Shown: one piece after another, positions 3,374 to 25,369 of the stretch
Numbering within the stretch: position 1 is the first letter of the stretch
Layout: each line of letters starts with the position of its first letter
The notes under the pieces: generated by a model
Told to the model about the DNA's origin: nothing
The model's input: only the letters and a program-made list of their open reading frames with translations
Database searches by the model: none
Position numbers and translations under genes: made by a program
DNA from: a virus
Lineage: Duplodnaviria; Caudoviricetes
Length of the DNA: 25,369 bases
IMG/VR virus record: IMGVR_UViG_3300025614_000016
Location: 1 to 25,369 of that record
Direction: 5' to 3' (one strand)

Positions 3374-3406
3374 AGTATGAGAGACGAAATTAATCAAGGA
3401 GTATAT

Positions 3407-4843
3407 ATGGAAGAAATTACAATCAATGGTAACACGTGGCAGAAGTATAAAGGGGATGAAGGACAAGATGTATTCATTGCTAAGTTTATGATTCCTGCTG
3501 ACGACTTATTAGGTAAATATGTAGACGAAAGTTTCTATGATGTGTTGATTGATAATGACGCAGATGTGTATCTCCCACCCGAATGCGATATGACAAAGAG
3601 TCAAGATTGCGATAACATATGCTTGAAGTGTATGGACGAATCTAGACTAGCATTTAAATTCCGTAAGAACGTATTTACCCCAGAAGAACAACTTGGAGCA
3701 TTTGAAGGTTTGTACGATTCAGCAGTTGAATCTAACAACCGAGGTATGGCAGCAGGTCCAAGAGTGGAACAGTCTGGTCACCGTGATTGGGTAACACCAT
3801 TCCAACAAGATATCCTTGAGTATTATGCATCTGGTCAACCAACACCTGTCGACGGATCTAACCCAATTGAAACTATTATTGAAAAGCATAAGACTAAGCA
3901 ACACGAAACCCGTGGGTCAGTCTGGTTGCGTTCTAAGATTGAGGGTGAGTTCGGTGTATATACTGGGTTCTTTGACGTTGCTATGGAACGTTTTGCGTCT
4001 ATGCCAGTTGATGAAGCAACTGAATATGTTAAAGATATCCGTAAGAATATGATTTCTGATACATCTTATGCTTCACCTATGTGGTCAGGTATCGCAGGTT
4101 TCTATGGCAGATATCCACGTATTCCATATGGTAGAGAAACTTCTTATGTAGAACACAACCGTGAGAAGTTTGAGAAGTGCTATCCTTTCGCAAGAAAACT
4201 TGATAAAGAATTTGCTAGATTAATTCCTGGACGTTATGCTAAACAAAAAGAGTTTGCAGATAGATTAGATAAGAAATTCTTAATTGGTGAAGACACTACA
4301 TTAACTACGATTACCGTGAACACAACTACAAGTGATAGAAATGCTAGAATGGCATGCCACCGTGATGCGGGTTCTTTGAATGAAGGGTTCTCAAACCTAA
4401 CAGTAATTACTAAAGACGGTAAGAGTTGGAAGGGTGGTTATCTTGTAGCACCAGAAGTACGTGCTGCAATTAATATCCAACCTGGAGACTTATTACTGAT
4501 TGACAATATGAGAGTTATCCACGGTAACACACCTATTGAAGCACCTGACTCTGGTATTGAAGATATGCTACGCATGAGTTTAATTTTCTACTTCCGTGAA
4601 GATATGGATAAGTTAGGCACTTGGGATTATGAAAAGACTAGACGTGAGTATGTAGATAGTCGTAGGTTGAATAAAGAACATGAATTGTGGAGACCGTTCT
4701 GGAATGGAGTATCACCGTCAATGTGGCATAACGATGAATGGTATGATTACTTGAAAGAACAAGATAAAGGTTTGGAGTGGTTAGAGGATTATCATCCTGA
4801 AGCACTTGAAGAGAAAACTACACTAGAGGGGTTCTTCGAATAA
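3407..4843 (+). CDS. TET/JBP-family 2OG-Fe(II) dioxygenase (putative 5-methylpyrimidine DNA oxygenase)
   Basis: HxD (CHRDAG), distal His (IHGNT) and RxS (RMSLIFYFRE). Start moved to ATG 3407 because it follows SD AAGGAG, whereas ATG 3377 is only 3 nt after the -10 box. Confidence 0.8.
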   Translation: MEEITINGNTWQKYKGDEGQDVFIAKFMIPADDLLGKYVDESFYDVLIDNDADVYLPPECDMTKSQDCDNICLKCMDESRLAFKFRKNVFTPEEQLGAFEGLYDSAVESNNRGMAAGPRVEQSGHRDWVTPFQQDILEYYASGQPTPVDGSNPIETIIEKHKTKQHETRGSVWLRSKIEGEFGVYTGFFDVAMERFASMPVDEATEYVKDIRKNMISDTSYASPMWSGIAGFYGRYPRIPYGRETSYVEHNREKFEKCYPFARKLDKEFARLIPGRYAKQKEFADRLDKKFLIGEDTTLTTITVNTTTSDRNARMACHRDAGSLNEGFSNLTVITKDGKSWKGGYLVAPEVRAAINIQPGDLLLIDNMRVIHGNTPIEAPDSGIEDMLRMSLIFYFREDMDKLGTWDYEKTRREYVDSRRLNKEHELWRPFWNGVSPSMWHNDEWYDYLKEQDKGLEWLEDYHPEALEEKTTLEGFFE

Positions 4844-6192
4844 TGAAAGTTTTAGTCCCAGTACATTCGTTTAATAATTTTGGTGGTATCATTAATCATA
4901 ACGAGCAGTTGATTGCAGGTTTGAAAGAAGTTGGACACGAGGTGACATTCGCATTCTTAAAACCAACTGCCGTGTATCCTAAGAAAGTAGATATCCCTAC
5001 AACCCTTGCCGAAGGATATGCCATTGGCGAAGGAACTGGATTACCAGTCCACCAAGGAAAAGGTTGGATTACGGATTACTATTCATTCCTTAACGAGAAA
5101 AGTATTCAAGAGTTTGTTGATATGGCAAATACTCACGATGTTGTTATCTGGCAAAGTATCTTCGGTTTCAAGAATAAGAATACAGAGAATAACGTTGATT
5201 GGTTGCCTATGGTAGAGGATGTATATGCTAAACAAGTTGCTATCATTCACGATGGTAATTTGAGAAAGTTGTATCCTTGGATTGATAAGTTGAAGCATAA
5301 AATTGATGGTCTGGCATGCGTACATCCGAGTGCATATGCAAGTGCTGAGTCAATTGATTTACCTAGAGCAATGATTTTGAATCCTCAACAGATTGACCCA
5401 TTACCTAAAGCACCTGCATTCAGTGAACGTAAACGTCAGTTGTTATCTGCTCAAACGTTTAAGAGATGGAAACGTGTTGACGATTTAGTAGCAAGTGTTC
5501 CTTACTTAAAGGATGCGAAGGTATATGTTGCTGGTGATGGAATTGAAAGAAACTATATGTGTTCAATTGATAAGTGTAAACCAGAATACTACTGTACAAA
5601 GGAACGGGATCCAAACGCAACAGAGGACATTCTAGGGAATAAGATATGGGATAATGCAACTGCTAATGGTATGGAATATCTTGGTTTTATCACTGAGGAA
5701 AGACGTGACGGAATCCTGAGAGAGTCTTTGTTTATGATTGACTCATCTTGGTCAAACTCATATGGTGAGCACTTTAATAGGGTTGTGGTTGATGCTATGA
5801 GAACTGGAACTGTTCCAATTGCTGTTAATAGAGGTATCGCATCTAACGATGACGGAATTGGTTCACTATTTCGACCGAATGAGAATTATCTGATGCTCAA
5901 GTATGACTACAAACCTAAAGAGTACGCAGACAAAATCAATCAGTTCTTGGATATCCCTGAGAATGCATATATGAAAATGGTTGAAAACAATTATAAAGTT
6001 ATTCAGAATTTTGATAGAAAGAAAATTGCTGATGATTATATCAATTTAGCATTCGGAAACCCTGCTGGATATCACGGTAAATTAGAAACACCTAAGTTTG
6101 TTGATCCGAAGTTTGAGAGAGATGGAAGTAAGCAATGGGAAGCACACTTCTCTACAGAAGAGGTTGCAACACTTGATTCGTTCTTTGGGTAA
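4843..6192 (+). CDS. GT-B fold glycosyltransferase (GT4-like), probable DNA glycosyltransferase
   Basis: N-terminal FGGIINH...LKEVGHEV, KRWKRVD, and EHFNRVVVDAMRTGTVPI (GT4 E-x7-E-like). Overlaps the TET stop (TAATG). Confidence 0.8.
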   Translation: MKVLVPVHSFNNFGGIINHNEQLIAGLKEVGHEVTFAFLKPTAVYPKKVDIPTTLAEGYAIGEGTGLPVHQGKGWITDYYSFLNEKSIQEFVDMANTHDVVIWQSIFGFKNKNTENNVDWLPMVEDVYAKQVAIIHDGNLRKLYPWIDKLKHKIDGLACVHPSAYASAESIDLPRAMILNPQQIDPLPKAPAFSERKRQLLSAQTFKRWKRVDDLVASVPYLKDAKVYVAGDGIERNYMCSIDKCKPEYYCTKERDPNATEDILGNKIWDNATANGMEYLGFITEERRDGILRESLFMIDSSWSNSYGEHFNRVVVDAMRTGTVPIAVNRGIASNDDGIGSLFRPNENYLMLKYDYKPKEYADKINQFLDIPENAYMKMVENNYKVIQNFDRKKIADDYINLAFGNPAGYHGKLETPKFVDPKFERDGSKQWEAHFSTEEVATLDSFFG

Positions 6193-7856: not shown

Positions 7857-7887
7857 ATAAGTATAGATTGAGTTAAAGGAGTAAAAT

Positions 7888-8141: not shown

Positions 8142-8176
8142 TGATGGTGTTGATTGATTGAAAAGGAGTTTATATT

Positions 8177-10462: not shown

Positions 10463-10509
10463 AGGTATTGTAGGTTGAGTTAATATGTTAAATAAAAGGA
10501 GTATATATT

Positions 10510-15928: not shown

Positions 15929-16318
15929 ATGATAGATACAATGATAGAAGTCACAATTGCGAAAGAAGATGACTTCTTAAAGATTAGAGAAACACTTACT
16001 CGCATAGGTGTGTCATCTCAAAAGAATAAAACCATATACCAATCCTGCCATATTCTACATAAGAAAGGTAAGTATTACATCACACACTTCAAAGAGTTGT
16101 TTGCCTTAGATGGCAAACCAAGCAACTTCGGTGATGAAGATAAAGGTCGTAGAAATACAATTTCCAATCTTCTAGCAGAATGGGGTTTGGTAACTCTTGT
16201 TGATAATGAGAAGAGCAAAGATCCAGTTGCTCCTCTGAGTCAAATCAAAATCCTTCCGTATAAAGAAAAACGTGAATGGAACCTAGAACCTAAATACAAT
16301 TTAGGAAAAAACTTCTAA
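15929..16318 (+). CDS. regA: Translational repressor RegA
   Basis: DDFLKIRETLTRIG, QSCHILHK and YYITHFKELFALDG. Confidence 0.97.
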   Translation: MIDTMIEVTIAKEDDFLKIRETLTRIGVSSQKNKTIYQSCHILHKKGKYYITHFKELFALDGKPSNFGDEDKGRRNTISNLLAEWGLVTLVDNEKSKDPVAPLSQIKILPYKEKREWNLEPKYNLGKNF

Positions 16319-16668: not shown

Positions 16669-16785
16669 AGTTATATGAAGTTTAGTAGAACTTAAAACTA
16701 CGAACCACTTTCAGTCAGCGAAGACGTCGGCGTTATAATGGGAGATAAGGATTGGCTAAAGTCGATCGAGTGTTCCCACCAAATT

Positions 16786-17067
16786 TGGTAATTCCGTGAG
16801 TTATAATCATAGGCATTACCATTTACTCTTTATTGGAGTTATGATGGACACGAGTTCAATTCTCGTCGACTCCACCAATGAAGGTATTGTTTCCCCCGAC
16901 AGTATCTTCTTTGATGGGGTTGCTAGGTTTCGACATGGTAACAGAAGGTTTAGAGTTGTAAGACCCAAAGTAAACGCAAACGCAGATACTTACGCAATCG
17001 CAGCCTGATAGGCATAGTGTGATTTGAGGATTTAGGCAGGATGAACCTTATAACCAAATCATCCTCC
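16786..17067 (+). ncRNA. ssrA: Circularly permuted two-piece tmRNA, tag ANADTYAIAA
   Basis: T arm ACGAG-TTCAATT-CTCGT and CGACTCC-ACCA (to 16877) come before GGGGTTG...TTCGAC (from 16916). The acceptor stem has a G3:U70 pair. Tag ORF 16976-17008. Outer boundaries are approximate. Confidence 0.92.
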
Positions 17068-17073
17068 AACTTT

Positions 17074-17120
17074 ATTAAGGAACGCATTACATCCTCCCCC
17101 ACTGTAGTGTGTTCCTTAAT
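17074..17120 (+). other. 18-bp hairpin with C-rich loop
   Basis: ATTAAGGAACGCATTACA-TCCTCCCCCAC-TGTAGTGTGTTCCTTAAT with two G:U pairs. Confidence 0.8.
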
Positions 17121-18305: not shown

Positions 18306-20780
18306 ATGAATAAATTTTACACGAACTTTTACCAACGAGGTAATAACGTCTATATTCGTGGATATAAAGATGGTAAACGTTTCAGAGATAAGATCTGGTA
18401 CAAACCGTCACTGTTTATTTCCACTAACAAAGACACCGAATTCAAAAATATCAAAGGTGAACCAGTTGATGCTGTTGTTCAAGAATCTATGGGTGATGCC
18501 AGAAAATTCTTTCAGAAGTATGATGGTGTTTCAAACTTTGAAGTCTGCGGAACTACTCAGTATGCATACTCTTGCATCAATGAGGAATTCGATAACTCAT
18601 TCAACCAAGAAGATATTGTTGTTGTAAACTTCGATATCGAGGTTGCATCTGGTGATGGGTTCCCTAGTCCAGATGAAGCATCTCAAGAAGTGACAGCAAT
18701 CACTGCTAGTTACAAGGGTGTCTACTACACTTTCGGTTGTCAAGACTATACGGTTAAACGTAAGGACAACAAGTATATCAAGTGTCACGATGAGAAACAC
18801 TTGCTACATCGTTTCCTTCAGTTTTGGCAGTCTGCCGATCCAGATATTATTACTGGTTGGAACATCCGTTTCTTCGATATCCCATACTTAGTGAATAGGA
18901 TGCGTAAGTTACTCGGTGATAAGCAAACTAAAAACTTCTCACCTGCTGGGTTAATCAAAGAACACATTCAAACAGTGTTTAATCGTGAACAGACTGAGTA
19001 TGAGTTGTGTGGTATTACAACTCTGGACTATCTAGAAGTGTATAAGAAGTTTACTTATTCTCAGCAAGAGAGTTATAGACTTGACCATATTGCTCACGTA
19101 GAATTGGGTGAACGGAAGTTGGACTACTCTGAAGTGGATAGTTTGTATCAATTATATGAAACTGACTATGAAAAGTTTATTGACTATAATATCAAAGACG
19201 TTGAGTTAGTTAATCAGATTGAAGAGAAGATGAAACTTCTTGACATGGTAATCGCACTTGCATACGACGCTAAAGTGAACTATATTGATACGTTCAAGCA
19301 AGTACGAATGTGGGATGTATTAATCAATAACTACCTGCTTGAGAAAGGTGTCATCGTTCCACCTAAGAAGGATGTTGAAAAGAAAACTCAATTTGCTGGT
19401 GGTTATGTTAAAGCACCCCAAGTCGGAATGCACGATTGGGTAATGAGTTTTGACTTGGCATCCCTATATCCACATCTTATTATGCAGTATAATATTTCAC
19501 CTGAAACCTTTTTGGTTGGTGAGTATCAAGATTTAACTGTAGATGGAATCATCAATGGTAAGTTTGAGAAAAGTTCCGACTGCTTATCCGCAAGTGGATA
19601 TTCGTATCGAAAAGATAAGCAAGGGTTTCTTCCTGAAATGATGCAACGATTATATGACGATCGTGTTATTTACAAGAAGAAAATGTTAGAGTCTTTAACT
19701 AAACTTGAAGAACTGACTAAGTCTGGTGGTGACATAACTCAAGTGACTAAGGATATCTCTAAGTACAAGAACCTACAACTAGCAAAGAAAGTACAGTTGA
19801 ACTCTGCCTATGGTTTCCTAGGTAATCAGTATGCTAGGTTCTTTGACGTTAGGATTGCTGAAAGTATTACGTTGTCTGGTCAGTTGTCAATCAAATTCAT
19901 TGCTAAGAAACTTAATGCATATCTGAATAAGTTGTTGAAGACTGATGAAGACTATGTAATTGCTGTTGACACCGACTCAGTATATTTGAAGATGGGTGGG
20001 TTAATTGATAAGGTCAAACCTAAGAACCCAGTCGACTTTCTTGATAAGGTTGGTAAGCAACAAATCGAACCATACATTAATAAGTGCTATGATGAACTTG
20101 CCGAGATGATGAATGCATATGAACAGAAAATGTTTATGGATCGTGAGGTTATTGCCGACAAAGGTATTTGGACTGCTAAGAAACGTTATGTATTAAACGT
20201 ACACGATAATGAGGGTGTTCGATATGCTACACCTAAGTTGAAAGTGATGGGTTTGGAAACAGTTAAGTCTTCAACTCCATCAATTTGCAGGGAAGCATTG
20301 AAGGAATCCCTTAACATTATCCTTAACAGTGATGAAGAAACAGTACAGAAATACATTGCTGACTTCAAGAAAGTGTTTGATGAGCATCCGTTTGAGGACA
20401 TTGCATTCCCTAGATCCATTTCTGACTTGAATAAATATACTGTTCCAGGTGACGATTTGATTATTCCTAAGGGAACATCTATTCATGCCAGAGGTGCGCT
20501 AGCATATAACTACCTCGTCAAGAAACATAATCTGACTAAACGTGTTGAGTTAATCAAAGACGGTGAGAAGATTAAGTTTTGCTATATGACTGTACCAAAT
20601 CCAATCAGGCAAAACGTTTTGAGTGTTGCAAATGGTTTACCTAAAGAATTTGAGATGGAACAATTCATCGATCGTGATTTACAATTCAGTAAGGCATTCG
20701 TAGAACCACTAAGAGCAATACTAACTGCTGTTGGGTGGGAAGTTGAGAAGACAAATAATTTAATGGAGTTTTTCGGATGA
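18306..20780 (+). CDS. gp43: Family B DNA polymerase gp43
   Basis: Exo I FDIE, FDLASLYP, KVQLNSAYG, DTDS and KKRY; uninterrupted. Confidence 0.98.
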   Translation: MNKFYTNFYQRGNNVYIRGYKDGKRFRDKIWYKPSLFISTNKDTEFKNIKGEPVDAVVQESMGDARKFFQKYDGVSNFEVCGTTQYAYSCINEEFDNSFNQEDIVVVNFDIEVASGDGFPSPDEASQEVTAITASYKGVYYTFGCQDYTVKRKDNKYIKCHDEKHLLHRFLQFWQSADPDIITGWNIRFFDIPYLVNRMRKLLGDKQTKNFSPAGLIKEHIQTVFNREQTEYELCGITTLDYLEVYKKFTYSQQESYRLDHIAHVELGERKLDYSEVDSLYQLYETDYEKFIDYNIKDVELVNQIEEKMKLLDMVIALAYDAKVNYIDTFKQVRMWDVLINNYLLEKGVIVPPKKDVEKKTQFAGGYVKAPQVGMHDWVMSFDLASLYPHLIMQYNISPETFLVGEYQDLTVDGIINGKFEKSSDCLSASGYSYRKDKQGFLPEMMQRLYDDRVIYKKKMLESLTKLEELTKSGGDITQVTKDISKYKNLQLAKKVQLNSAYGFLGNQYARFFDVRIAESITLSGQLSIKFIAKKLNAYLNKLLKTDEDYVIAVDTDSVYLKMGGLIDKVKPKNPVDFLDKVGKQQIEPYINKCYDELAEMMNAYEQKMFMDREVIADKGIWTAKKRYVLNVHDNEGVRYATPKLKVMGLETVKSSTPSICREALKESLNIILNSDEETVQKYIADFKKVFDEHPFEDIAFPRSISDLNKYTVPGDDLIIPKGTSIHARGALAYNYLVKKHNLTKRVELIKDGEKIKFCYMTVPNPIRQNVLSVANGLPKEFEMEQFIDRDLQFSKAFVEPLRAILTAVGWEVEKTNNLMEFFG

Positions 20781-24720: not shown

Positions 24721-24749
24721 TTGACATTTGCTCAAAACTAGGGTATAAT
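24721..24749 (+). promoter_or_regulatory. Consensus sigma70 promoter
   Basis: TTGACA-N17-TATAAT. Confidence 0.88.
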
Positions 24750-24782
24750 ATAAGTATAGATTGAGTGAAAAGGGGTTGAGTT

Positions 24783-25112
24783 ATGATTGATACTAAAAAA
24801 ATTGTTGAGTTTGCTAGAGATGAGTTGATGATTTCAAAGAATGTTATTGTTAATGTTTATTTAGAAGATCTAACTGAAGACAATGCCCATGGTTGGTGTG
24901 TTGCTTCTTCTGACAAACCAGGATTCAATAAGAATGAATATGATATTGAACTTGAAGAAACTTTAAATGATGATGAGTTGTTAGTTACTTTGTGTCACGA
25001 AATGGTTCACGTTAGACAATACTCACAAGGTGAGAGATCTAATGAACGTGAAGCAATTTCTTTAGAAAACGAATTAGCAGAGAAATATTTATTGATTGTA
25101 AGTGATTTTTAG
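24783..25112 (+). CDS. Small HExxH zinc metallopeptidase-like protein
   Basis: TLCHEMVHVRQ...EREA. Confidence 0.75.
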   Translation: MIDTKKIVEFARDELMISKNVIVNVYLEDLTEDNAHGWCVASSDKPGFNKNEYDIELEETLNDDELLVTLCHEMVHVRQYSQGERSNEREAISLENELAEKYLLIVSDF

Positions 25113-25122
25113 ACGATGCGTC

Positions 25123-25369
25123 TGGTTTTACACTATAAACTAAAACCAAAAACCAAAGAGTCCGTTTTGGTAGTTTTGACTTTAAAAAAACTACCACTTA
25201 TTAAATAGAAGTCGCTTTGGTAGTTTAAGACTTCTCAAAACTAAACTACCATGAGTGCTGTGTAAATACTCTCGACTCAATCAACGACCTCTACACAGCA
25301 CTCCCTCTTTAGGATGCGGACTCCTTTGTTATGTTTTTTGACGCATCCCCGACCTGAGCATGTCTAAAC
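25123..25369 (+). ncRNA. Putative structured ncRNA: array of hairpins and pseudoknots, running off the window
   Basis: Perfect stems at 25123-25148, 25168-25196, 25218-25251, 25253-25303 and 25312-25348; no ORF. Strand is inferred from the upstream promoter. Confidence 0.6.

Follow-up and report, generated by a model that had tools for sequence, protein, structure and literature searches.

Genomic context and anatomy of the cassette

The window, i.e., the complete 25,369-nt stretch of IMG/VR record IMGVR_UViG_3300025614_000016 analysed here, is a fragment of the replication module of an uncultured marine T4-like phage, with genes for gp46, the clamp loader, RegA, gp43, UvsX and gp41; 92% of it is coding. 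Its closest annotated relatives are distant, with ~60% identity of gp41 to DLP6 and cyanophages. The clade is known from fragments only, which are 10–23% complete, and at least two thirds of the genome of the window phage lie outside our view. The window also encodes a tRNA, and a permuted two-piece tmRNA with the tag ANADTYAIAA is located at 16785–17099. A similar LxxFFx tail was observed in two adjoining large ORFs (3377–6192) and in the DNA polymerase (18306–20780).

At the 3′ end of the window, downstream of an ORF with an HEXXH motif, lies a cassette of ~165 nt that consists of a 5′ pseudoknot, two hairpins and a 3′ pseudoknot (Table 1). The first-pass annotation had described the two hairpins as an array of independent small RNAs. 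Its coordinates for the stems, loops and leader sites were all correct when re-read from the sequence and both hairpins are real, but the element is larger, with pseudoknots on either side of them, and constitutes a single cassette instead of an array.

Table 1. Features of the cassette, its presumptive transcription unit and its predicted interaction partners in the window
Feature	Position	Strand	Details
Predicted target leader, 62-aa hypothetical gene	7863..7887	+	−18.6 kcal/mol with loop 1, best 1% of windows
Predicted target leader, 742-aa peptidase-family gene (phrog_459)	8148..8176	+	−16.7 kcal/mol with loop 1
Predicted target leader, AAA ATPase gene (phrog_249)	10469..10509	+	−16.7 kcal/mol with loop 1
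regA, translational repressor	15929..16318	+	PDB 1REG, E 1e-36; PF01818; candidate partner of loop 2
Sigma-70 consensus promoter, 12/12	24721..24749	+	Would transcribe ORF and cassette
Predicted own-transcript leader	24756..24782	+	Seeds 24759–24766 and 24774–24781; start placed by −10 spacing
ORF, 109 aa, HEXXH motif, host gene of the cassette	24783..25112	+	Weak putative metallopeptidase, DUF6782 below cut-off
Variant-specific insertion	25113..25206	+	Extra hairpins 25123–25148 and 25168–25196, resembling the 5′ pseudoknot stem
Predicted 5′ H-type pseudoknot	25207..25251	+	25207–25213 with 25229–25235; 25218–25227 with 25242–25251
Hairpin 1	25253..25303	+	Perfect 12-bp stem 25253–25264/25292–25303
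Loop 1	within 25253..25303	+	Anti-SD tract 25267–25272; anti-leader seed ACTCAATCAAC 25275–25285
Hairpin 2	25312..25348	+	Invariant 7-bp stem 25312–25318/25342–25348
Loop 2	within 25312..25348	+	Anti-SD ACTCCTTT 25320–25327; RegA-SELEX-like 9-mer 25326–25334
3′ H-type pseudoknot	25351..25369, past window end	+	Complete in L001 1507–1530

When the core cassette was folded alone, both hairpins formed (z −5.3). In the minimum-energy fold of 25100–25369, hairpin 2 is not formed and is paired with 25115–25163 instead. This partner region belongs to an insertion private to the window-type variant, which adds seven codons to the ORF and can mask hairpin 2 in the predicted fold; long-range masking was dismissed as a general feature, since the partner region is missing in eight of nine variants. 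In the other variants, the space separating the ORF from the cassette is either empty or occupied by a tRNA or a different hairpin. Where the tRNA is located directly 5′ of the cassette, in one variant, it would supply a processed 5′ end. No intrinsic terminator closing the cassette was predicted.

Conservation across relatives

The first five variants were fetched via the adjacent protein (65–100% identity) without using the motif. Both loop cores are invariant in them, whereas the hairpin-1 stem and all upstream sequence differ, and the changes in the hairpin-1 stem are compensatory. Four further variants came from motif scans: a metagenome scan returned 56 stretches, eight of them with the hairpin-2 arm and the remainder treated as chance, and removal of the chance rows L226 and L268 from 11 matches gave a set of nine. 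The loop motifs were required in the extraction of this set; therefore, invariance was tested without bias in the first five variants only.

Across the nine variants, hairpin 1 comprises 9–12 bp with six different 5′ arms, and hairpin 2 keeps an identical stem in which all seven pairs are constant. The loop of the upstream stem is complementary to the 5–7 nt preceding that stem, which constitutes the predicted 5′ pseudoknot; its helix of 5–7 bp is present in 9/9 variants, with p<0.05 against shuffles in seven. RNAalifold chose this helix unprompted, with two-sided changes in 6/6 pairs, a count that gap placement may favour. In alignment A2, 86% of the cells are paired and 15 of the 32 pairs change on both sides, which was matched by 0/500 shuffles.

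Four G-U pairs in hairpin 1 and four in the 5′ stem stand against two A-C mismatches among the nine variants, an asymmetry that favours the + strand as the RNA strand. A function on the minus strand, with the loops acting as sense decoys, is disfavoured on these grounds and because of the + strand promoter, although the minus strand folds equally well. A small peptide starting at the AUG of loop 2 was rejected, as it would have eight codons in the window and three in variants with one extra T.

Searches for distant homologues with model R1 over 64 loci gave seven full matches, all within the clade; the 20 loci whose ORF is distantly related to the host gene of the cassette gave none. BLASTN against annotated phages matched only fragments of the promoter and the 3′ knot. 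The full cassette was seen in the close clade only. No Rfam family matches it, the best being RsaA with 22.9 bits versus a gathering threshold of 50. Judged from conservation and folding, we consider the cassette to be a real, conserved and hitherto uncatalogued RNA element.

Predicted transcription of the cassette

The cassette lies ~460 nt downstream of the promoter at 24721. No + strand terminator was predicted between 21828 and the cassette, which makes read-through from the uvsX–gp41 unit plausible as well. Transcription from either source is therefore plausible from the arrangement of signals. The stretch is contained in 18 RNA runs from 15 studies, as assembled contigs that carry neither strand nor ends and give no ranking of genes, and one contig of 768 nt covers the entire cassette, with the depth dropping beyond it. 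RNA-library contigs also bridge promoter spacers, pointing to a possible DNA origin, and they were not counted as support.

Complementarity of loop 1 to promoter-proximal leaders

The 8-mer GATTGAGT occurs twice on the + strand of the window (7866, 24759) and AAAGGAGT three times (7875, 8162, 10495), in each case in non-coding sequence, and on the minus strand each occurs once, namely in a loop of the cassette. For each 8-mer, the chance of landing in the 96-nt hairpin region is ~0.001. The question whether the seed complements concentrate in leaders versus coding sequence has a divided answer: the two 8-mers are always in leaders, but shorter seeds are common in coding sequence, with non-coding shares of 2/8 for GTTGAGT, 5/22 for TTGAGT and 1/2 for GTTGATTGA.

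Reading from 5′ to 3′, loop 1 presents an anti-SD tract, a short spacer and the anti-TTGAGT seed, i.e., the colinear complement of the leaders. The earlier reservation that the two loops are not in colinear antisense order consequently falls, since loop 1 has an anti-SD tract of its own 5′ of the seed. Its computed pairing with the four leaders reaches −14.3 to −18.6 kcal/mol, which is within the best 1–7% of windows, versus −5.3 to −10.0 kcal/mol (31–81% of windows) for eight other promoter-proximal regions. Coding windows can pair with loop 1 equally well or better, and the top five windows are non-leaders. In the reverse test, loop 1 ranked first among 752 + strand windows as partner of the four leaders, which had been picked after the motif was seen, and the best window of the element for the eight other promoter-proximal regions ranked 28 of 736. 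When the leaders were selected by their promoter boxes plus an SD filter, hairpin 1 ranked first of 13 hairpins in the window (z −5.5), first of 22 in G002 and first of 17 in G001. Thus, the complementarity to these leaders noticed in the first-pass annotation holds, and loop 1 is the computed best partner of this leader class. The seeds are predicted to be unpaired (0.84–0.90), so that by computation loop 1 has what is generally expected of an antisense sRNA, a conserved and accessible seed complementary to its targets.

One of the four leaders belongs to the transcript that carries the cassette, and the tail of the transcript from 24721 might fold back on it in cis, limiting the translation of a single gene. 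This leader offers two sites to loop 1 and one of 8 bp, including a G-U pair, to loop 2; however, of the four leaders it pairs least strongly with loop 1 (−14.3), it varies among relatives in which the loops are constant, and when it was omitted loop 1 still ranked first of 748 windows. We regard pairing in cis as distinctly improbable.

Covariation of loop and leader, suggested earlier as a check, was not visible within the clade, where both sides are invariant. Nor is the leader motif a private barcode, as had been assumed: unrelated phages carry it, and TTGAGT-type leaders were found in 67 stretches of other phages in a scan without a control pattern. The motif may resemble the strong initial transcribed sequence of the T5 promoter N25, a likeness that would account for the leader motif but not for the loop. 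From the complementarities, repression of multiple targets by antisense pairing is likely.

Promoter types and a proposed mechanism

The seed follows three types of −35 element to different extents, in 8/8, 4/11 and 1/12 gene groups, respectively (Fisher p 0.003; 59 promoters in 31 clade gene groups that are not mutually independent, some being split orthologues). Replication genes lie behind promoters of the third type, which often give leaderless messages. For gp46 and gp43, the ATG follows the −10 box by 6–7 nt, and both messages are predicted to be leaderless, as had been proposed; leaderless and replication-type starts were unmatched by loop 1. Many replication-type promoters (718, 18293, 21823 and in clade loci) have an ATG at or beside the predicted start site. 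An early-to-replicative switch, the role originally envisaged, is a possible reading of this pattern; which promoter type is early is not readable from the sequence.

We lean towards the view that a stable, knot-protected RNA pairs in trans with seed-bearing leaders and blocks ribosome entry. The message from the promoter at 24721 would carry the + strand of the cassette at its 3′ end, and the cassette would then be processed to, or left as, a free small RNA that the pseudoknots would guard against nucleases. Loop 1, helped by loop 2, would pair in trans with the seed and the Shine-Dalgarno sequence, and exclusion of the ribosome would repress the leader class. As the stable RNA accumulated while the unstable target messages turned over, the shut-off would be delayed; this negative feedback would cover the host gene of the cassette itself, and leaderless and replication-type messages would escape. 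What is known of how lytic phages shut down their first messages comes mainly from T4, in which the nuclease RegB accounts for part of the effect. If the mechanism is true, a phage would repress a whole class of its own messages through the leader they share, and would need no protein for it.

Loop 2 and RegA

Loop 2 is the less discriminating of the two: 9–13% of windows pair equally well, it ranked fourth of 13 hairpins, and it performed nearly as well on the leaders of other phages (−11.4, −10.1 and −8.9). Leaders complementary to it were found in 71 other viral stretches, none of which is similar to the clade loci (scan without a control pattern), and none in 26 clade loci plus the window. 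The complements of both loops are thus promoter-proximal leaders in many phages, and the absence of loop-2-type leaders from the clade itself would fit loops that are generic anti-SD or anti-leader arms directed against host messages or co-infecting phages. Yet loop 1 prefers its own leaders, with −16.1 versus −2.6 to −9.9 for those of other phages, and the 42 matches in GTDB to the 18-mer complement of loop 2 were scattered, having neither a taxon nor a gene in common. Three related matches from marine alphaproteobacteria fall inside a coding frame, and a host target by exact 18-mer match was discarded, as none of the six matches inspected among the 42 was persuasive. We therefore consider such generic arms improbable. 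Within the cassette, loop 2 probably serves as an additional anti-SD arm, weaker than loop 1, and may also bind RegA.

The possible link to RegA comes from the invariant part of loop 2, which extends beyond the anti-SD. In a match noticed post hoc, positions 25326–25334 are identical to the 9-nt core of the T4 RegA SELEX consensus, as given in PMC3014915. The 9-mer is kept in 9/9 variants, including L429, whose anti-SD part has changed, and only 432 of 200,000 loop shuffles contain it. The RegA encoded in the window matches K14, T18, R21 and W81, named there as RNA-binding residues (PMC3014915). The cassette might therefore be mainly a protein-binding RNA, acting as a RegA decoy or being gated by or delivering RegA, with pairing secondary. 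An invariant hairpin-2 stem is expected for a site that is read by sequence. In addition, TTATG was absent within 60 nt from all 13 other hairpin-plus-knot loci, and RegA was absent from the knot-bearing records G009 (38% complete) and G014 (complete).

Against this, the A tracts that flank the SELEX site are absent around the 9-mer, the known sites of RegA lie in message starts that lack structure, and the RegA of RB69 has another preferred sequence (PMC3014915). In four complete T4-like genomes, the 9-mer (7 sites) was not enriched and never located in a comparable loop. Its letters also complement a leader type of other phages, and binding of RegA leaves loop 1 unexplained. A mainly protein-binding role thus appears unlikely to us.

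Comparison with known systems

A close parallel is the c4 RNA of P1 and P7, a phage RNA processed from a longer transcript, as the cassette may be, which uses two single-stranded elements, one for the ribosome site and one for specificity upstream of it, to block a message of its own phage (PMC12197685, PMC5320573). The precursor of c4 is matured by RNase P. Two-element pairing of this kind is present by computation in loop 1 with the seed and SD of four leaders. The cassette differs in its fold, its flanking pseudoknots and its occurrence in a lytic-type T4-like phage, and the Rfam C4 model gave no match to it at E values up to 5, 1 and 10. Moreover, c4 acts on one icd/ant antirepressor message in an immunity region, whereas the predicted targets here are several unlinked leaders, belonging to a hypothetical gene, a peptidase-family gene, an AAA ATPase and a putative metallopeptidase, with no antirepressor among them.

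T4 RegB inactivates a class of phage messages via the SD region and helps the phage to exit the early phase, according to PMC3014915; it is a protein nuclease, whereas here an RNA would act by pairing. The RegB profile PF10715 gave zero matches anywhere, controls included, and is uninformative on the absence of RegB. T4 RegA operators also differ, being unstructured message starts (PMC3014915), whereas the core in loop 2 lies in a hairpin of a putative non-coding RNA. The PeSL cassettes of T4-type phages are likewise intergenic stem-loops near sigma-70 promoters, but they are described in PMC2839356 as repeated promoter-terminator units; the cassette is single-copy in each contig searched and has large conserved loops, no U tail and no terminator-like site.

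In the mostly open-access literature that we searched, neither the element nor any antisense RNA by which a lytic phage addresses several leaders was described. The available portions of PMC9004378, on phage Melnitz, and of PMC10690425 hold no description of the element. None of five motifs was found in six supplementary files of PMC10690425, whose other files may hold models of the element. A review of phage sRNAs mentions, in its available part, only single-target or host-directed cases (PMC12197685).

The 3′ pseudoknot and related hairpins in other phages

The 3′ pseudoknot, which has no Rfam family, occurs alone in ~840 viral stretches of IMG/VR, in most cases just behind a stop codon or the end of an RNA gene. 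Its flanking pair, which the search pattern did not fix, is kept in 135 of 186 instances by four pair types (near duplicates included). Among isolates, SIO1 and Lentibacter phages have it, and it was also observed in L058–L177 and L398–L508. A motif so widespread in these positions, together with the late-type promoter and the next gene located immediately 3′ of the cassette, would suit an element that stabilises or processes 3′ ends at an operon boundary, and CU-rich loops match purine-rich leaders to some degree anyway, so that the complementarity could be incidental. Such a role, however, leaves invariant loops within freely changing stems unexplained, and nowhere else in the 25 kb than in these two loops do the leader 8-mers have a reverse complement. 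We judge it very improbable.

Hairpins with loops fitting the leaders of their own phage were also found elsewhere. Phage Melnitz (MZ577097, ~38546–38600; L594 18546–18600) has a unit of promoter, 15-bp hairpin with a CU-repeat loop, and terminator. Its CU-rich loop ranked first of 77 hairpins by energy for its own GA-rich leaders, although it was no better than its own shuffles (z −1.2). Like the cassette, this unit has a long stem and an open pyrimidine loop complementary to promoter-proximal leaders; it differs as a stand-alone promoter-hairpin-terminator unit with one loop and no pseudoknots, and its function is predicted. Nothing in Melnitz matched model R1 significantly (best E 0.096). 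The Melnitz loop has CTCTCGACT in common with loop 1 of the window.

In a second lineage, a hairpin is located directly 5′ of the same 3′ knot, and its loop fits the AGAAAGGA ribosome sites of that lineage. A hairpin with a TCCTTTCTT loop before the 3′ knot was observed in L399, L401, L415, L435, L437, L457, L459, L439, L491 and L503, and the ribosome sites are mostly AGAAAGGA where these loci have enough flank. In seven records, 6/6 to 10/13 of the AGAAAGGA occurrences precede an ORF, versus 0–1 in the clade; the fit may simply track the host anti-SD. Comparing four loops, each pairs best with the leaders of its own phage (diagonal best in 4/4 rows), in a matrix that is partly circular because its targets were motif-filtered. 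The complete, RegA-bearing G008, with two TTGAGT leaders, had no matching hairpin among 93, and the leader-hairpin test gave nothing clear in HTVC008M and DLP6 and no clear result in G007, G009, G013, L437 and L459, which are fragments or have few leaders.

A more far-reaching reading, which is tentative and which we rate as rather unlikely, combines these threads: in marine T4-like phages, the pseudoknot-armoured RNA would replace a RegB-type nuclease and read the leader by one loop, while the RegA site of the following loop would bring RegA to the silencing or let it set the timing, and the RNA would belong to a convergent class of anti-leader RNAs in unrelated phages. If true, this would be an RNA-guided form of the classic phage translational repressor, in which the RegA-like site links a textbook repressor to a non-coding RNA.

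Two further structured elements were noted. On the minus strand of L394 (9211–9255; G013), one hairpin carries a pyrimidine-rich loop, ranks first among 62 for the leaders of its own phage (z −3.0) and adjoins a cluster of strong promoters. In another phage group, downstream of the end of an Hsp20-like gene, a conserved, promoter-started and structured stretch of ~60 nt precedes the same knot (L064, L075, L077, L078, L087, L091, L111 and L112).
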